Shown here piece by piece: positions 6,444-22,278 of a DNA stretch of 64,000 nucleotides (position 1 is its first letter; each line of letters starts with the position of its first letter). The translations under genes and the position numbers were made by a program. A model generated the notes under the pieces. That model saw nothing but the letters and a program-made list of their open reading frames with translations. It was not told the origin of the DNA and did not search any database. The DNA is from an uncultured Spirochaetota bacterium (GTDB taxonomy: Bacteria; Spirochaetota; Brevinematia; Brevinematales; JAOACQ01): assembly GCA_963783575.1 (NCBI GenBank), contig CAWAOD010000010.1, positions 64,001 to 128,000 of the forward strand, read 5' to 3'.

Positions 6444-6599
6444 ATGAAAATTGATAATACATTTTTTCTCATTGGAAGAATAAAGGAACATTATAAGGCT
6501 TTTCTTGAAAAAGAATTAAAAAAGAGAGGGATGAAGAATCTCGTTACTTCTCATGCCGATATTATTGTTGCGCTTAAAATATGCGGAGAACTAACCCTG
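6444..6599 (+). pseudogene. MarR-family regulator, N-terminal half, truncated by IS21
   Basis: LEKELKKRGMKNLVTSHADIIVAL...ELTL stops at the IS end just before the HTH; TTGAAA-17bp-TATATT promoter immediately upstream. Confidence 0.7.
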
Positions 6600-6722
6600 T
6601 GGAAATGTCAAGAGTTTTTCCCATATCTGCGCTCGGGTAATTTCCCACCCCTTCCACAAGAGTATTTCCCATATGCTTCACAAGAGTTTTCCCCATACCT
6701 TCCACGTGAGTATTTCCCATAG
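6600..6722. repeat. IS21 subterminal direct repeats (~24-bp period, CAAGAGT[A/T]TTTCCCATA-like, about 5 copies)
   Basis: Read directly; inverse copies TATGGGAAAT occur near 9089-9125. Confidence 0.8.
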
Positions 6723-6740
6723 TGAGGAGGCAAAGAATGG

Positions 6741-7490
6741 TTACTCAACCTCCTTATTCAAATTTTGTATTCTGTAAGATTCTCCGCTCAAGTTATAAAT
6801 ATTTGAATGATGTAAAAGCCTATCCAGAAGAGCGGTTGTCATAATCGGGTCTCCCATCATTTCAGCCCAATCCTGAAATCCCTTATTCGATGTTATCACA
6901 ATTGATGTCTTTTCATACAATTCACTTACAAGACTAAAGAATAGATTTGCCTCCTTCTTTTCGATAGGTGTGTAACCTATCTCATCAATGATTAATAAGT
7001 GTGACTTCATCATCCGGTTCAGCCTGAAAGCAGAGCTTCTCTGGATGTCCGCCGTTTTCAGAAACTTAATGAGAGTAGTCATCCTTTCAAAGCAGACAAT
7101 ATATCCCTTTTCAACTGCCCGGATTCCGATACTAATTGCCAGATGCGTTTTCCCCAGCCCCGGAGACCCAAAGAACAACAGGTTATGATGATTATCAATC
7201 CAGCAGAAATCCAATAGCTGTGAAACATCCATTTTAGATATTCCATTCACTTTTTCAAAATTAAAACCTTCCACATCTTTGCGGACCGGGAAGTGTGCTC
7301 CTGCCATATTCCGCTGAAAACGTTTTTCCACTCTATAATTCAATTCCAGAGAAAGCAGCCTCTGCAGAAAACTCAGATAAGACTCTTTTGCCTTTTCAGC
7401 CTCACCAATTTCCTCATCAATCCGTTTTATCATACCCTTCAACCCGAGAGTTGTAAGCGCAGTTATGATTTGTTCTCTTATCTTCAACAT
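6741..7490 (-). CDS. istB: IS21 helper ATPase IstB
   Basis: Walker A GSPGLGKTHLA, LLIIDEIGY, ALLDRLLHH; overlaps the istA stop. Confidence 0.95.
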   Translation of the reverse strand: MLKIREQIITALTTLGLKGMIKRIDEEIGEAEKAKESYLSFLQRLLSLELNYRVEKRFQRNMAGAHFPVRKDVEGFNFEKVNGISKMDVSQLLDFCWIDNHHNLLFFGSPGLGKTHLAISIGIRAVEKGYIVCFERMTTLIKFLKTADIQRSSAFRLNRMMKSHLLIIDEIGYTPIEKKEANLFFSLVSELYEKTSIVITSNKGFQDWAEMMGDPIMTTALLDRLLHHSNIYNLSGESYRIQNLNKEVE

Positions 7491-9037
7491 TGCCGGCCCC
7501 CGATGGAGTCACAGAAACTCTGGTATTTCCCGATGTCTGATTTAGCTACTTCAAGATAGTGTTCAGGATTCACTGAAGGCCTGACAATCTTTTCAACATT
7601 CAAGGGTATTTCTGCCTTTTCTGTTATAAAACAGTTCAGGTAATTATCCCACAAATCCTTCATGGAATAACTATCACTCTCCAGGCAGTTTGAGATCGCT
7701 TGTGTAAGCTTCCCGGTATCAATTATCTTGTCCCTGAAGTATTTTCTTCCGGAAAGACATTGGTCCCTTACATAACGATTGAACTTCCTGAAATTACATT
7801 CAAGAAAATCCTTCCAGCCGGGAATATCAAAGTACCCGCTTACTTCTTCTTTCAATAACTGCACACTCTTTCCCATTTCCCGGATCATTGCCCTGTTGGT
7901 TACAATCTGCCCCGGAATCACTGAAAGCCGGTATTCGGCGATTTGCTCTCCCGTTATCCTGTCAAAGACAAAAAGCCGACTGCCCGTCTTGTAGATGTCC
8001 ACCGAACCGTTCCTGTATTTTTCGGGAATATCATACTGGCTTGCATCAACTGCGATCCGGCATTTATCGCTTACACTGCGCTCTTCCCTTGCTCCTATCC
8101 TGTCTTTACGGAATATCGAATTCCTGACAGATTGGAGATATGGTCTTTCCGTTTCAATCTCTATCAGTGGTATTTTCATTGTAGCCTGGGATATTCTCCC
8201 GTTGGCTTTTCTTTCCAGCCATTTCATCAGGCTTTCTTCCGCTTCCATTAAACTGTTGAACTCCCGGACTGAGAAGAAACCGTGCTTGATGAATTTGACT
8301 ACGTTTTCAATCTTTCCCTTACTTTCCGGGTCAGCAGGTCGGCACACATACATTTTAAGACCCATTTCCCCGATGAAATACTGAAAGTCTTTCGTGTAGA
8401 TGATATCGCCTGAGTTCTCACTCGCAACCATCGTGCAGTCCTGATCGATGACAAGTTCATGCGGTATCCCGCCCATATATGCGAAACAGTCCAACAGATG
8501 ATTGATAAGGTCTTCTGTCCGGAATGGCCTCTCCTGGAGGGCCGCATACTTAAAACGACTGGCGGATAACACCGCGGCAAATATGTAATACCTTCTGCCA
8601 TATCTGTCGGTATATTGACCGAAATCAAGCTGGAGCTGCTTTCCATATGGCATGTCAGGCACTTTTGTGTAATACCGTCGCTTTTCATTCAAGGTAAGCT
8701 GCCCGCTTTCAATCAGGTAATGTACGAAATTCCTCATCGTATTTTCATTCGCCGGTAGTTTGCCTTTTACCTCCAATAAATAGTCATACAAAGCAGACAT
8801 ATTCAGCCGGATGTAATCATTCTTTGCATATACTTTCAATATGTCTGTTTTTATTCCTTCGAATTCTTTTTCACGGAAAGAGAATTCCATCAGGCTTTTC
8901 TGGTATTCGGAATCGTTCATAGCCCAATATTTTCGGACTGTCTTAATATCTATTGACAGTTCCCGGGATACACCATTTTTACTTTTCCCCAAAAGTTTCA
9001 GTTTTTTTATGTCCTGATACATAATATTTTTCACCAT
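7484..9037 (-). CDS. istA: IS21 transposase IstA
   Basis: N-terminal HTH, QLQLDFG, ELVIDQD, CRPADPESKGKIEN (rve DDE fold). Confidence 0.95.
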   Translation of the reverse strand: MVKNIMYQDIKKLKLLGKSKNGVSRELSIDIKTVRKYWAMNDSEYQKSLMEFSFREKEFEGIKTDILKVYAKNDYIRLNMSALYDYLLEVKGKLPANENTMRNFVHYLIESGQLTLNEKRRYYTKVPDMPYGKQLQLDFGQYTDRYGRRYYIFAAVLSASRFKYAALQERPFRTEDLINHLLDCFAYMGGIPHELVIDQDCTMVASENSGDIIYTKDFQYFIGEMGLKMYVCRPADPESKGKIENVVKFIKHGFFSVREFNSLMEAEESLMKWLERKANGRISQATMKIPLIEIETERPYLQSVRNSIFRKDRIGAREERSVSDKCRIAVDASQYDIPEKYRNGSVDIYKTGSRLFVFDRITGEQIAEYRLSVIPGQIVTNRAMIREMGKSVQLLKEEVSGYFDIPGWKDFLECNFRKFNRYVRDQCLSGRKYFRDKIIDTGKLTQAISNCLESDSYSMKDLWDNYLNCFITEKAEIPLNVEKIVRPSVNPEHYLEVAKSDIGKYQSFCDSIGGRQC

Positions 9038-9162
9038 TCCTGCCTTCCTTTAATGAATTTTCATTAAAGTTTAACTTCTATTTCCCCCTATGGGAAATCT
9101 GTTTGTGACAGGTATGGGAATTTCATTTATTGCTACCCTGGTAAATTAGTTTATCATTTCCA

Positions 9163-9417
9163 CGTAAACGGAGAAGAAGAAAAAGTTTTTCCTGCGCTCC
9201 TCGGGTTCGCCCAAGAACAGCAAGGAGAAAAGCTACGGCTGCGGTGCTCAGGCTTCGCCACATTTGCCTTTGGCATCTTTTTTGCTAATTTTGAAAATTA
9301 ATGAAAAGGGTTATGAAATGAAATGCTTTCAAATATTTAAAAGCCGGTTCTGGAATTGCAAAAAAGACGCCAATCGTTAACGCGAACGGCAAACGTCGCC
9401 AAGCCGCACCGTTAGCT
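9163..9417 (+). repeat. Truncated hybrid attC-like site (type A fragment 9163-9212 + type B 9240-9417); R' GTTAGCT at 9411
   Basis: Matches 10818-10867 and 13512-13689; lacks its R'' half. Confidence 0.7.
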
Positions 9418-10769: not shown

Positions 10770-11020
10770 AGCTAACAGCGGCTATATCGCTCCGGTGCTC
10801 GAAAAAACTTTTCAGGGCGTAACGGAGGAGAAGAGAAAAGTTTTTCCTGCGCTCCTCGGGTTCGCCCGTTTTTGATTTTGTAAAAAGAGAAAGGAGTTCA
10901 ACTTGACTATGATGATTATTAAAATAGAAGTCATTATTTACGGGCTCACCACATTTTCGGGCCTAAGAGCGCGGGGCTAGCTCTAAGGCCCGAAAACGTC
11001 GTATAGCCGCACCGTTCTAC
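10770..11020 (+). repeat. attC-like site, type A (251 bp)
   Basis: AGCTAAC-AGCGGCTATATCG ... CGTATAGCCGCACC-GTTCTAC, with three internal hairpins. Confidence 0.85.
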
Positions 11021-11648: not shown

Positions 11649-11674
11649 ACATTGTGCCCGTAACGGCGCAGAAC

Positions 11675-13468
11675 GGCCATGTAGAAAAAGTTAATTTCAG
11701 GTAATAATCCTCCATTCCCAAACAGTTTGTTTTTTTTGATCTGTCTGGAATCACTTTTTTATATAAAACCGGGCTGAATTTACCGGCAAAACTGCTTTTA
11801 TTCCATCACTATGCCATTATATACCTCCATAGACCTGAATTTTCCCGATATTGTGCACAGTATTATATAATACCCATTGAATATTCACTTTTACCTTTCC
11901 CCTCAGCGTAAATCGATCCATACCTTTACATGCCCTTATATTCCCGAATACAGGCTCAACTATAGCCATTCTTTTCGCATAAAGCTTTCTGCCTTCAGGT
12001 GTATCTATGAACTTTCTCATTTCGTCCGAGTAATGTCTGTTATCCGCATTCAATGGCCTTTGCAACATCGTGTTGCTGTCGAACTAACGTTCGACGGCCT
12101 TTTTGGCTATATAGTAGCTCTTATGGAACCTCCGTGTTCCCAAGGTTGTTTGATTTTATTTTAATTCTTCAGGAAGTCTTTCCGGAATGGACAATTACGG
12201 CAGGACAATAACCGGCAGATATACTTCGCGTATGTAATATGATTCACCGTATGGTTATTTCTGAACCGGAGTTCCTCTCCTTTCTTGCATATATAGACAT
12301 TCCTTATTGGGTCATATTGAAAATCATCGATTGTATACTGCCCTTTCTTCGCAGGCTTATGTCTGTCAGCGGTTTCAAACCTGCAATCGCGCTTCCTGAA
12401 ATTCGTATCCGGGATGACCGGTTTCATACCGTTTTGCGAAATATATTTCAGGTTCTTTTCGCTGAAATAATTGGTGTCCGCGGTGATTATTTTATCCTTT
12501 AAATCTTTTCCCAATTCTACTTTTGCTTTACGGATCATCCCTTTCAGGAATTCCCCCTCAGACCCGCTCCCAAAAGCTTCGGGATATACCACAACCTGAT
12601 ATTTCGAATCCACGACCGATAAGCCATTGTATCCCTGGATTACACCGTGCGATGATTTTATTTTCGCGCTCTGGTTATCAGTGACATTGGACTGCTTTTC
12701 ACCATGCCTTGATTTATCTTTCGGTTTTTCACTTTCCAGAAACTTTTCTATCTTTTCAGCTTTCTTTAAAATCTTCTCGATCCGTGCCAGATCTTTTTCC
12801 TTATCCTTCTCAGGAAAATCGCCGTCCTGATCACGCTTTTCATGTTCATCAAGCATTTCCTTAACCAGGTTTTCCAGCTTCTCTTTTTTCTTCTTCAAAT
12901 CCTTAAATGTTCCGCTCCATTCCTTTGATGCATTTGACGATAGTTTGCACCCGTCCAGCGCGAACATATCCCCGCCTATGAGATTCAGTTCGTCACAAAC
13001 CATCAATGTATTCAGGAATACGGTATTTATCTCATTTTTCATCGAAGAAACAAAATCGGCGATTGAAGTAAAGTGCGGTATTGAATTGGCGGAAAGGGCT
13101 TTGGCTATAATATTCGTTTTACACAAATACTCGATTTCACGTGATGTAAAAATACCGCGGGAATAGCTGTAGAGTATTATTTTGAGCATAACCCGCGGAT
13201 TATAAGCCGGGGCACCGGTAGCATCGTTCTTATACTTATTCTCAAAGATTTTAAGATCAATTCTGTTGTCAACAAGAAAACTGAGTGTATATTCGAATGT
13301 TCCCGGTATAATCTGCTCATCGAATGAGACAGGTATGAGTTCCATTTGATCGTAATTAACTTTCTTATATCTTGCCATAATTGCTTTTACCTCTTGATTT
13401 TATTTCCAATATATTTTAAAGTATATACGATATTCTGTACATGAATGACGGACTTTTTCTACAGGCTC
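11675..13468 (-). mobile_element. IS1182-family element, copy 1 (1794 bp), inserted in the attC R'' box
   Basis: 17-bp imperfect IRs GGCCATGTAGAAAAAGT / ACTTTTTCTACAGGCTC; AAC on both flanks. Confidence 0.9.
11817..13378 (-). pseudogene. IS1182-family transposase split into 405-aa and 83-aa ORFs
   Basis: GAPAYNPRVMLKIILYSY (DUF772-like), ALDGCK, ADTNY; YAKRMAIVEPVFG lies in the second ORF; TAA plus frame change at 12161-12068. Confidence 0.85.
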
Positions 13469-13689
13469 AACAAGGCATAGCTGTTGCGCTCCGTCCTCAC
13501 TAGCGTTCCGGGCGGTGCTCAGCCTTCGGCACATTTGCCTTTGTCATCTTTTTTGCAGAATTTGAAATTTAATGAAAAGGGTTATAAAAATGAAATACTT
13601 TATTATATTTAAAGTCTGGTTCTGGAATTGCAAAAAAGACACCAATCGCTAACGCGACCGGCAAACGTCAGCTATGCCTGCCGTTAAAC
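13465..13689 (+). repeat. attC-like site, type B (225 bp); first bases of R'' (GCTCAAC) supplied by the IS end
   Basis: GCTCAAC-AAGGCATAGCTG ... CAGCTATGCCTGCC-GTTAAAC. Confidence 0.85.
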
Positions 13690-14988: not shown

Positions 14989-15236
14989 GTTTAACCGTGG
15001 CTATATCGCTCCGGTGCTCGAAAAAACTTTTCAGGGCGTATGGAAATGTCAAGAGTTTTTCCTGCGCTCCTCGGGTTCGCCCGTTTTAGATTTTGGTAAA
15101 AAGAGAAAGGAGTTCAAATTGACTATGATGATTAATAAAATAAAGGTCATTATTTACGGGCTCACCAAACCCGTAAACCTAAGCGCGCGGGGCTGGCGCT
15201 AAGGTTTGCGGGCTTCGTATAGCCTCACCGTTATAT
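14989..15236 (+). repeat. attC-like site, type A variant (248 bp) containing an IS21 end footprint
   Basis: GTTTAAC-CGTGGCTATATCG ... CGTATAGCCTCACC-GTTATAT; 15041-15062 identical to 6600-6621. Confidence 0.85.
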
Positions 15237-15829: not shown

Positions 15830-16080
15830 GTATATCAGCGGCTATATCGCTCCGGTGCTCGAAAAAACTTTTCAGGGCATAACGAAGAAGAAGAAAAAGT
15901 TTTTCCTGCGCTCCTCGGGTTCGCCCGTTTTAGATTTTGGTAAAAAGAGAAAGGAGTTCAAATTGACTATGATGATTAATAAAATAAAGGTCATTATTTA
16001 CGGGCTCACCACATTTTCGGGCCTAAGAGCGCGGGGCTAGCTCTAAGGTCCGAAAACGTCGTATAGCCACACCGTTGTAC
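15830..16080 (+). repeat. attC-like site, type A (251 bp); R'' mutated (ATC instead of AAC)
   Basis: GTATATC-AGCGGCTATATCG ... CGTATAGCCACACC-GTTGTAC; near-identical to 10770-11020. Confidence 0.85.
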
Positions 16081-16761: not shown

Positions 16762-16793
16762 TTCTAGAACTTGCTGCACCGCCATCGCCTAAC

Positions 16794-18588
16794 GGCCATG
16801 TAGAAAAAGTTAATTTCAGGTAATAATCCTCCCTTTCCAAACAGTATGTTTTTTTTGATCTGTCTGGAATTACTTTATTTTTATAAAACCGGGCTGAATT
16901 TACCGGCAAAACTGTTTTTATTCCATCACTATGCCATTATATCCCTCCATAGACCTGAATTTTCCCGATATTATGCACAGTATTATATAATACCCATTGA
17001 ATATTCACTTTTCCCTTTCCCCTCAGCGTAAATCGATCCATACCTTTACATGCCCTTATATTCCCGAATACAGGCTCAACTATAGCCATTCTTTTCGCAT
17101 AAAGCTTTCTGCCTTCAGGCGTATCTATGAACTTTCTCATTTCGTCCGAGTAATGTCTGTTATCCGCATTCAACGGCCTTTGCAACATCGTGTTGCTGTC
17201 GAACTAACGTTCGACGGCCTTTTTGGCTATATAGTAGCTCTTATGGAACCTCCGTGTTCCCAAGGTTGTTTGATTTTATTTTAATTCTTCAGGAAGTCTT
17301 TCTGGAATGGACAATTACGGCAGGCCGATAACCGGCAGATATACTTCGCGTATGTAATATGATTCACCGTATGGTTATTTCTGAACCGGAGTTCCTCTCC
17401 TTTCTTGCATATATAGACATTCCTTATTGGGTCATATTGAAAATCATCGATTGTATACTGCCCTTTCTTCGCAGGCTTATGTCTGTCAGCGGTTTCAAAC
17501 CTGCAATCGCGCTTCCTGAAATTCGTATCCGGGATGACCGGTTTCATACCGTTTTGCGAAATATATTTCAGGTTCTTTTCGCTGAAATAATTGGTGTCCG
17601 CAGTGATTATTTTATCCTTTAAATCTTTTCCCAATTCTACTTTTGCTTTACGGATCATCCCTTTCAGGAATTCCCCCTCAGACCCGCTCCCAAAAGCTTC
17701 GGGATATACCACAACCTGATATTTCGAATCCACGACCGATAAGCCATTGTATCCCTGGATTACACCGTGCGATGATTTTATTTTCGCGCTCTGGTTATCA
17801 GTGACATTGGACTGCTTTTCACCATGCCTTGATTTATCTTTCGGTTTTTCACTTTCCAGAAACTTTTCTATCTTTTCAGCTTTCTTTAAAATCTTCTCGA
17901 TCCGTGCCAGATCTTTTTCCTTATCCTTCTCAGGAAAACCGCCGTCCTGATCACGCTTTTCATGTTCATCAAGCATTTCCTTAACCAGGTTTTCCAGCTT
18001 CTCTTTTTTCTTCTTCAAATCCTTAAATGTTCCGCTCCATTCCTTTGATGCATTTGACGATAGTTTGCACCCGTCCAGCGCGAACATATCCCCGCCTATG
18101 AGATTCAGTTCGTCACAAACCATCAATATATTCAGGAATACGGTATTTATCTCATTTTTCATCGAAGAAACAAAATCGGCGATTGAAGTAAATTGCGGTA
18201 TTGAATTGGCGGAAATGGCTTTGGCTATAATATTCGTTTTACACAAATATTCGATTTCACGTGATGTAAAAATGCCGCGGGAATAGCTGTAGAGTATTAT
18301 CTTCAGCATAACCCGCGGATTATAAGCCGGGGCACCGGTAGCATCGTTCTTATACTTATTCTCAAAGATTTTAAGATCAATTCTGCTGTCAACAAGAAAA
18401 CTGAGTGTATATTCAAATGTTCCCGGTATAATCTGCTCATCGAATGAGACAGGTATGAGTTCCATTTGATCGTAATTAACTTTCTTATATCTTGCCATAT
18501 TTTCTTCTCCGACTTGATTTTATTTACAATATATTTTAAAGTATATACGATATTCTGTACATGAATGACGGACTTTTTCTACAGGCTC
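16794..18588 (-). mobile_element. IS1182-family element, copy 2 (1795 bp), inserted in the attC R'' box
   Basis: Same IRs as copy 1; GCCTAAC|IS|AAC junctions. Confidence 0.9.
16937..18498 (-). pseudogene. IS1182 transposase, split exactly as in copy 1
   Basis: ORFs 17281..18498 and 16937..17188; scattered SNPs relative to copy 1 but the same stop and frameshift. Confidence 0.85.
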
Positions 18589-18775
18589 AACAACAGCTAT
18601 ACCGCTGCGGTGCTCGACTCCCCTGGCACTACGTCTGTGCTCCTCGGGTGCAGCTAGTTTTTTGTATAAAAAGTAAAATGGGGTTAAAATTATTTATGAT
18701 TATAATTAAAGAGAATACTTTGGTAAAAGAGGCTGCACTAAGCCTCACGGGCTTCGTATAGCCGCACCGTTGTAC
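18585..18775 (+). repeat. attC-like site, type C (191 bp)
   Basis: GCTCAAC-AACAGCTATAC ... GTATAGCCGCACC-GTTGTAC; internal GTGCAGC/GCTGCAC stem. Confidence 0.8.
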
Positions 18776-19707: not shown

Positions 19708-19730
19708 AAATGCCCCGCCCATCGTACAAC

Positions 19731-19842
19731 GGCCTTGTAGAAAAAGTTAATTTCAGGTAATAATCCTCCCTTTCCAAACAGTATGTTTTTTATCGATCTG
19801 TCCGGAATCACTTTTTTATATAAAATCGGGCTTAATTTACCG
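19731..19842 (-). mobile_element. IS1182 remnant (transposase-distal end only), after R'' GTACAAC
   Basis: GGCCTTGTAGAAAAAGT... matches the first ~110 bp of copies 1 and 2. Confidence 0.85.
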
Positions 19843-22022: not shown

Positions 22023-22050
22023 TATTATATATTGCACGCCGCCAACAACC

Positions 22051-22278
22051 ATCCCTCCATAGACCTGATTTTACCAATGGATTCGGCAGGCTCACCAAAA
22101 GTATTATACATAGTATTATAGATCATCCACTGAATATAACTTTTCCCAACTCCAATTGTTTGTAATTGACTTTCTTAAACCTTGCCATAATTGCTTTTAC
22201 CTCTTGATTTTATTTACAATATATTTTAAAGTATACACGATATTCCGTACATGCATGACGGACTTTTTCTACAGTCTC
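22051..22278 (-). mobile_element. Internally deleted IS1182 remnant, followed by AAC and the first 16 bp of another attC
   Basis: Transposase 3' fragment joined to the 5' fragment; ACTTTTTCTACAGTCTC|AAC AGCGGCTATAACGCTC. Confidence 0.8.

Follow-up and report, generated by a model that had tools for sequence, protein, structure and literature searches.

A 22-bp remnant of an IS21-family insertion sequence in an attC site of an uncultured spirochaete-like bacterium points to a likely insertion hot spot

How did a 22-bp sequence identical to the end of an insertion sequence come to lie inside an intergenic recombination site, and does it mark a place to which the element is repeatedly drawn? This question is raised by a locus in a metagenome-assembled genome (G000; 18 contigs, 89.85% complete, 4.91% contamination). 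The stretch of DNA analysed, referred to below as the window, comprises 64,000 bp and corresponds to G000:C10:64001-128000. Within it, the sequence TGGAAATGTCAAGAGTTTTTCC at 15041-15062 (plus strand) is identical in 22 of 22 positions to 6600-6621, and it is directly preceded by CAGGGCGTA, both as originally predicted. With up to three mismatches allowed, these two loci were the only matches in the window, and none was obtained in 100 shuffled sequences. Since the counterpart at 6600-6621 terminates an element encoding IstA and IstB, this identity indicates that the 22 bp are a remnant of the istB-side end of an element of the IS21 family.

The complete element (6600-9162, minus strand, 2563 bp, with the ends TGGAAATG and CATTTCCA) is, as judged from its sequence, a member of this family, and the assignment made in the original prediction is backed by the IstB profile, matches to solved structures, the order of istA and istB and the nature of the ends. 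The istA gene (7484-9037, minus strand) codes for a predicted DDE transposase of 517 aa, and istB (6741-7490, minus strand) for a predicted AAA+ helper ATPase of 249 aa; the two open reading frames (9037 to 7484 and 7490 to 6741) have the same orientation and overlap by 7 nt. In profile searches IstB scored 253.9 bits against NF038214 (cut-off 200) and 243.9 against PF01695, and it matched the IstB chain of IS5376 in the PDB (1.6e-48). For IstA the best family was NF033546, with 147.4 bits, which is under the cut-off of 160; this protein also scored 34.9 against a threshold of 32.6 with PF00665 (rve), and its residues 10-285 matched the IstA of IS5376 in the PDB (1.7e-19). Three repeats with a spacing of 24 nt are located at 6641-6721, inside the istB-side end. 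The element thus resembles IS5376 of Geobacillus and IS21 in its istA-istB overlap, TG...CA ends, repeated subterminal motifs and 5-bp target duplication. Elements of the IS21 family are spreaders of resistance and virulence genes.

The remnant is placed within one of a set of intergenic repeats of approximately 200-260 bp, which open with ..AAC, close with GTT.. and possess a bulged outer stem (GCGGCTATA / TATAGCCGC). The sites were located by nhmmer with four seed sites, together with end profiles. In an automated comparison, the R'' 7-mer of a cassette was the exact reverse complement of the preceding R' in two of six cases on C10 and five of nine on C5, and two further pairs were recognized by eye where the automated pattern had chosen a spurious R'. 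This complementarity, extending over 7/7 bases, indicates that the repeats are true integron-type attC sites, although they are longer than canonical ones, whose usual length is about 57-141 bp. The system is not a canonical integron. The best match to the integron integrase model TIGR02249 (C5:457467-458178) reached 100.5 bits against a cut-off of 265, scored about equally with Xer models and left the IntI-specific profile stretch 175-231 unmatched; moreover, the tyrosine recombinase heading the C5 array (C5:457129-458178; L001 1163-2136) is split over at least two frames and contains one TAG codon. As the recombinase is broken and falls below the IntI cut-off, the sites are called attC on the grounds of their behaviour. 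A search of the window against Rfam returned no family match.

The site carrying the remnant (14989-15236, plus strand; R'' GTTTAAC at 14989-14995, R' GTTATAT at 15230-15236) belongs to a group that we designate type A, and intact type A sites at 10770-11020 and 15830-16080 (both on the plus strand) served for comparison. In the interrupted site the conserved attC box GGTGCTCG occupies 15013-15020 (plus strand). Sixteen copies of the type A module were recognized, 13 of them intact and three with an insertion, and of the 35 genomes compared within the order, G000 alone has the type A left arm. The interior of type A sites contains AAAGGAG, resembling a ribosome-binding site, followed by a 23-codon open reading frame (ATGATGATT...TAG; window 10909-10980), and by alignment the same stretch is present at 15125-15196 and 15969-16040. 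The window also contains a repeated segment of about 1.8 kb (11667-13486 and 16786-18606, spacing 5120 bp), with 88-100% agreement between the two copies in the reported families (D2, D4, D8, D16).

The position of the remnant within its site is shared with other copies of the element. It begins 20 nt past GGTGCTCG (box 15013-15020, joint at 15041). The istB-side end of an intact copy at C9:127559-124998, flanked by the duplication TCAGG, is likewise found 20 nt past GGTGCTCG, and that of the copy at C5:112693 is located 19 nt past it, in a site whose inner module is of another type. The orientation relative to attC is identical in all three. A fourth joint is provided by the right end of the window copy, which adjoins the same type A module; a 5-bp duplication would put its left joint at +21. 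From the joint to the right-hand AGTTTTTCC, a motif described below, the interval is not constant (21 and 27 nt), so that the positional cue is on the left. In comparison with the 13 intact sites, the C9 type A site has five extra bases (...CTTTTCCATTCAGG) between the left arm and the joint (G000:C9:127560-127580), which could be the trace of an older event.

The original prediction was that the element targets a fixed position in type A attC, and it proposed that all junctions in the genome be mapped. This yielded up to 17 events in G000 defined by their junctions. Six are in attC-like sites: the remnant, C9:127559, C5:112693, the right junction of the window copy, C13:210469 (in the degenerate 5' half of an attC site) and C4:18071 (in a type B-like site, in the opposite orientation). 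Some 11 events are found away from attC, in ordinary DNA or in mobile DNA of other kinds, and one insertion (C5:464883) is situated 9 bp outside an R'' core. The attC tropism was borne out, three joints lying 20, 20 and 19 nt past the box in one orientation. Strict site specificity was not: with the remaining events scattered, the attC position is better described as a hot spot, or a preference. Type B sites were considered as the place of a further hot spot, but this was rejected, because the events at L010, C13:210469 and C4:18071, all of them away from the +19/20 position, share no position with one another.

Could this clustering arise with no targeting at all? Insertions might land at random and survive mainly in harmless cassette arrays and mobile DNA, the common position being a coincidence. 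Purifying selection does enrich insertions in non-essential DNA, the copy at C9:389464-392025 lies inside a repeat also present at window 19720-19790 and 22040-22080, and the C12 and C13 copies are within 3 kb of attC sites. Against this, three joints in one orientation fall 19-20 nt from an 8-mer which occurs 38 times in the 4.9-Mb genome. Three of 17 events within 16 windows of 11 bp correspond to a binomial probability of 3e-11, and six of 17 within at most 25 kb of attC sequence to 2e-10, both values being post hoc and ignoring selection, though by a wide margin significant. We consider the absence of any targeting very improbable.

The number of insertions represented in the window is a separate matter. 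In the original prediction the remnant and the element end at 9162 were the two junctions of one insertion, with a 4-bp CGTA duplication in the loop of a hairpin. One part of this was confirmed from the sequence: the element end at 9162 (...CATTTCCA) is followed by CGTAAACGGAGAAG and continues into attC sequence. The right part of an attC site extends from 9163 to 9417 (plus strand), beginning with the type A inner module from CGTAAACGG, passing into a type B body and closing with R' GTTAGCT at 9411-9417; the left part of the site is missing. The joint of the window copy's right end with attC is genuine, its left-hand counterpart is missing from the assembly, and no left junction in which CGTAA adjoins the element end was found in the genome. 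Joining the left flank at C5:112693 to the right flank at 9163 as halves of one site was tried and rejected, since the two lack a common duplication and their outer stems fail to pair.

No target duplication surrounds the window copy, its left flank being CCCTG and its right flank CGTAA. On the left it interrupts a gene of the MarR family, the 5' part of which lies at 6444-6599 (plus strand). The 3' part, starting with CCCTG, is found on another contig (G000:C5:109857-110131), where it adjoins the element copy at C5:110132; this part scored 25.1 against a threshold of 24.6 with PF01047. The two halves of the gene thus have CCCTG in common and each stands beside a copy of the element. The separation of these halves on two contigs, together with the missing duplication, indicates that the window copy is either a recombinant of two copies or the product of a chimeric assembly path; its duplication would have been lost by recombination between element copies, or through a chimeric join. 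The left flank at 6599 therefore pairs with the C5 junction.

The length of the target duplications bears on the same point. By blastn, 12 full or nearly full copies, two internally deleted copies and one relative of 76% identity were detected in the genome. Among the 13 copies with both ends, ten are flanked by a 5-bp duplication and three have none; a 4-bp duplication was seen in 0 of the ten. Duplications of 5 bp likewise flank the 76% relative (C8) and the corresponding element of G001. Older reports give 4-bp duplications for IS21 itself. For IS5376, all ten sequenced insertions obtained in vitro had 5-bp duplications, according to the available part of that study (PMC10122671).

A single insertion with a 4-bp CGTA duplication in one type A attC, the two junctions of which were later parted by rearrangements, nevertheless has certain points in its favour. 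CGTA is common to the flank of the remnant (GCGTA) and to that of the 9162 end (CGTAA), a 4-bp duplication would set the 9162 joint at +20 as well, a left junction of CGTAA with an element end is missing from the genome, and copies of the element recombine. It is opposed by the duplication lengths (0/10 of 4 bp here and 0/10 in the available in vitro data; PMC10122671) and by the right halves of the two sites, which diverge after GGGTTCGCCC, one having a type A and the other a type B body. The gene order would in addition demand a microhomology exchange, a second one between copies and, beyond these, a permutation, and the C9 copy, with its intact TCAGG duplication, is an independent insertion at the same position. 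A single insertion is therefore judged quite improbable.

The possible chimeric path raises a broader doubt, namely that the remnant or the junctions were made by the assembler from a mixture of strains. The genome is a MAG of 18 contigs, and the MarR half joined to an attC half may reflect such a path through a 2.5-kb repeat. By contrast, 22 bp bounded by 9 shared bp would be unlike an error of this type, every junction is continuous sequence, and a clean 5-bp duplication flanks the copy on C9. An artefact of this kind seems extremely improbable. The contigs C7 and C17 differ from the other 16 contigs of G000 in G+C content (52% and 49%, versus 33-39%) and may be foreign or contaminant.

The structure of the remnant suggests how it may have been formed. 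Its last nine bases (15054-15062, plus strand) are the motif AGTTTTTCC, which represents bases 14-22 of the element end and immediately precedes TGCGCTCC in each type A module. This 9-bp repeat, common to the element end and attC, is the likely deletion joint; the exact run shared by element and attC is 9 bp, or 11/12 when the bases preceding AGTTTTTCC are counted. The original prediction explained the footprint by a microhomology deletion, and this explanation holds well, as a deletion between two copies of AGTTTTTCC yields the remnant base for base. In the proposed sequence of events, the element would enter attC 20 nt past GGTGCTCG, duplicating GCGTA, after which illegitimate recombination would take place between the AGTTTTTCC copy in the element (bases 14-22) and the one in attC. 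Such a deletion would take out what remained of the element, along with the second GCGTA and some 17 nt of the attC module. That the deletion restores most of a hairpin was not supported, since the module folds no better than shuffled sequences in either state. The hairpin itself proved not to be robust: folding of three modules as DNA returned z-scores of -1.08, -1.51 and +0.10, and in none of them did the long arms pair.

Elements transposing by the copy-out-paste-in pathway are not excised by their own enzyme, and only rare illegitimate recombination leads to an element-free state, according to the available text of one source (PMC9333248). The 14-base istB-side end has 14 exact matches in the genome, which correspond to 13 element copies and one remnant; the search for further footprints by means of this sequence thus identified the remnant at 15041 as the sole one. 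One remnant among 14 end matches fits the rarity of illegitimate recombination described in the accessible part of that source (PMC9333248). On sequence evidence, the remnant is likely to represent a separate insertion at the hot spot, later removed by the AGTTTTTCC deletion. That the attC position is a hot spot and the 22 bp a deletion remnant, whatever the mechanism by which the position is chosen, appears to us highly probable. The evidence consists of three to four events in one uncultured spirochaete-like MAG, for which reason it should be regarded as a lead rather than a result.

The copies of the element are mosaics of common variant blocks, which indicates exchange between them. The last variant block of the window copy is as in the C12 and C15 copies, and its first 2 kb are as in the group of the C9, C14 and C5 copies; the mosaic region spans approximately alignment columns 2270-2490. 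Two further loci, C14:79498 and C14:81754, have the exact 14-base istA-side end preceded by differing upstream sequence, and probably mark the ends of a different but related IS21-family element. At C9:244737, a match of 14 bases to the other end was dismissed as due to chance, as it shows no further likeness and no attC context. The 76% relative (G000:C8:49190-51748 and G001:C7:370086-372645) has a different duplication in each genome (ATTCT and GGTGG, respectively) and adjoins the same palindromic repeat (TTTTTGACG..GGTGCCCGCTTG..GGG.CGG.AAAAAT) in both, on opposite sides.

Outside G000, the element at close identity is absent from 40 relatives, and just pieces of 70-88% identity were found, in G001, G005, G008 and G011. 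Among the 35 genomes of the order, three contain the 22-mer when up to three mismatches are allowed. In public genome contigs, the element end was detected at three loci, all at contig ends of one Brevinematales MAG, and one of the three left flanks of this end lies inside a type B attC. Public metagenome contigs yielded one locus with the element end, whose flank is not attC.

How the position is selected can be approached from the sequence next to the joint. The attC stretch GAAAAAACT, directly past the box, is the reverse complement of the terminal motif of the element with one change. It is separated from the joint by 12 nt, and the corresponding motif of a real end is separated from the tip by 13 nt. 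The transposase would then sit tip-to-tip against this pseudo-end, in the manner of the end-targeting of IS30 and IS911. Of 14 flanks, 4 contain the heptamer TTTTTCC no more than 45 nt outward of the right end (p 7e-5), or 3 of 12 when independent contexts are counted (p 9e-4), both values being post hoc; at two sites outside attC (C14:72305 and C9:389464) the heptamer stands 12 and 14 nt from the other end, on its outward side. Local alignment of flanks with the element end gave p values of 0.027-0.07 per flank, the likeness being weak and mostly confined to the A/T tract, and the flank at C5:112693 (19 nt) does not contain this tract.

The main alternative accepts the same hot spot and remnant and attributes the position to DNA shape: IstB would favour the A-tract-rich attC module, and the end-like motif would be only the microhomology used in the deletion. 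In the available parts of a structural study, IstB decamers of IS5376 bend target DNA into a kinked S shape, and its authors propose structure-based selection of kink-prone hot spots by this protein (PMC11208146). That IstB curves its target (PMC11208146, same parts), that A6, T4, A4 and T5 tracts surround the joint in the module, and that the flanks resemble the element end only weakly would all agree with such a choice. A single orientation in four events and joints fixed to within 1 nt relative to the left box argue instead for an asymmetric sequence cue. Nor was a general preference for hairpins supported: in 70-nt folding energy, 11 rebuilt empty sites were similar to 3000 random windows (Mann-Whitney p 0.09; p 0.55 for the seven sites outside attC). 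Selection by shape alone is in our view a tentative and somewhat unlikely account. The fixed distance and orientation lead us to lean, slightly only, to the pseudo-end. We assign a probability of roughly 45% to the complete reading, which comprises insertion at the hot spot, formation of the remnant by the AGTTTTTCC deletion and choice of the position through the pseudo-end.

In its furthest form, this reading would state that an IS21-family transposase docks tip-to-tip on an end imitation in attC, orientation-specifically and with 1-nt precision, which would be the first sequence-directed targeting in the family and a third, unrelated class of attC-homing element; so broad a statement is doubtful at present. 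For IS5376, no clear target sequence specificity was apparent in ten sequenced in vitro events, as given in the available part of the report (PMC10122671). The element described here differs from it in having three joints within 1 nt of one another relative to the attC box, all in one orientation. Among elements with an affinity for attC, those of the IS1111-attC group insert at a set place and in a set orientation, and group IIC-attC introns home to attC as retroelements recognising the folded strand. The introns are unrelated to the present element, and so is the DEDD enzyme of the IS1111-attC group, which contrasts with a DDE IstA and an AAA+ helper. The element also differs from this group in producing 5-bp duplications, in using other landing sites too, and in entering the inner module and not the recombination core. 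The IS1111-attC group (IS110 family, e.g. ISPa21) has been reported, in the portion of the preprint available, to target integron attC sites (10.1101/2024.02.09.579496).

Another parallel may be offered by IS30 and IS911, which land beside sequences resembling their own ends with a strong orientation bias and belong, like IS21, to the copy-out-paste-in group, according to the available text of the source (PMC9333248). For IS21, by the same text (PMC9333248), end-targeting is not documented. The likeness has its limits: IS30 and IS911, as described there, target genuine ends of their own element, with formation of a new end-to-end junction, whereas here the target is a weak imitation of an end and a normal 5-bp duplication arises, as in the C9 copy. 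A limited literature search on IS21 and attC, and on target choice by IS21, the sources covered in part, revealed no IS21-family element for which a tendency to enter attC is reported.

To conclude, an insertion sequence whose family is regarded as nearly indiscriminate in its targets is likely to have a preferred landing point. Recent structures attribute target choice in the IS21 family to DNA bending alone, and joints lying within 1 nt of a constant position beside a conserved box would offer a defined substrate with which to ask which of IstA and IstB reads the target, or whether both do. As regards integrons, the element breaks attC sites and, by way of deletion, would reshape them; insertions of this type fuse cassettes or freeze arrays. 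If the proposed events are true, repeated insertion followed by microhomology deletion would be a source of new inner modules in giant attC sites.
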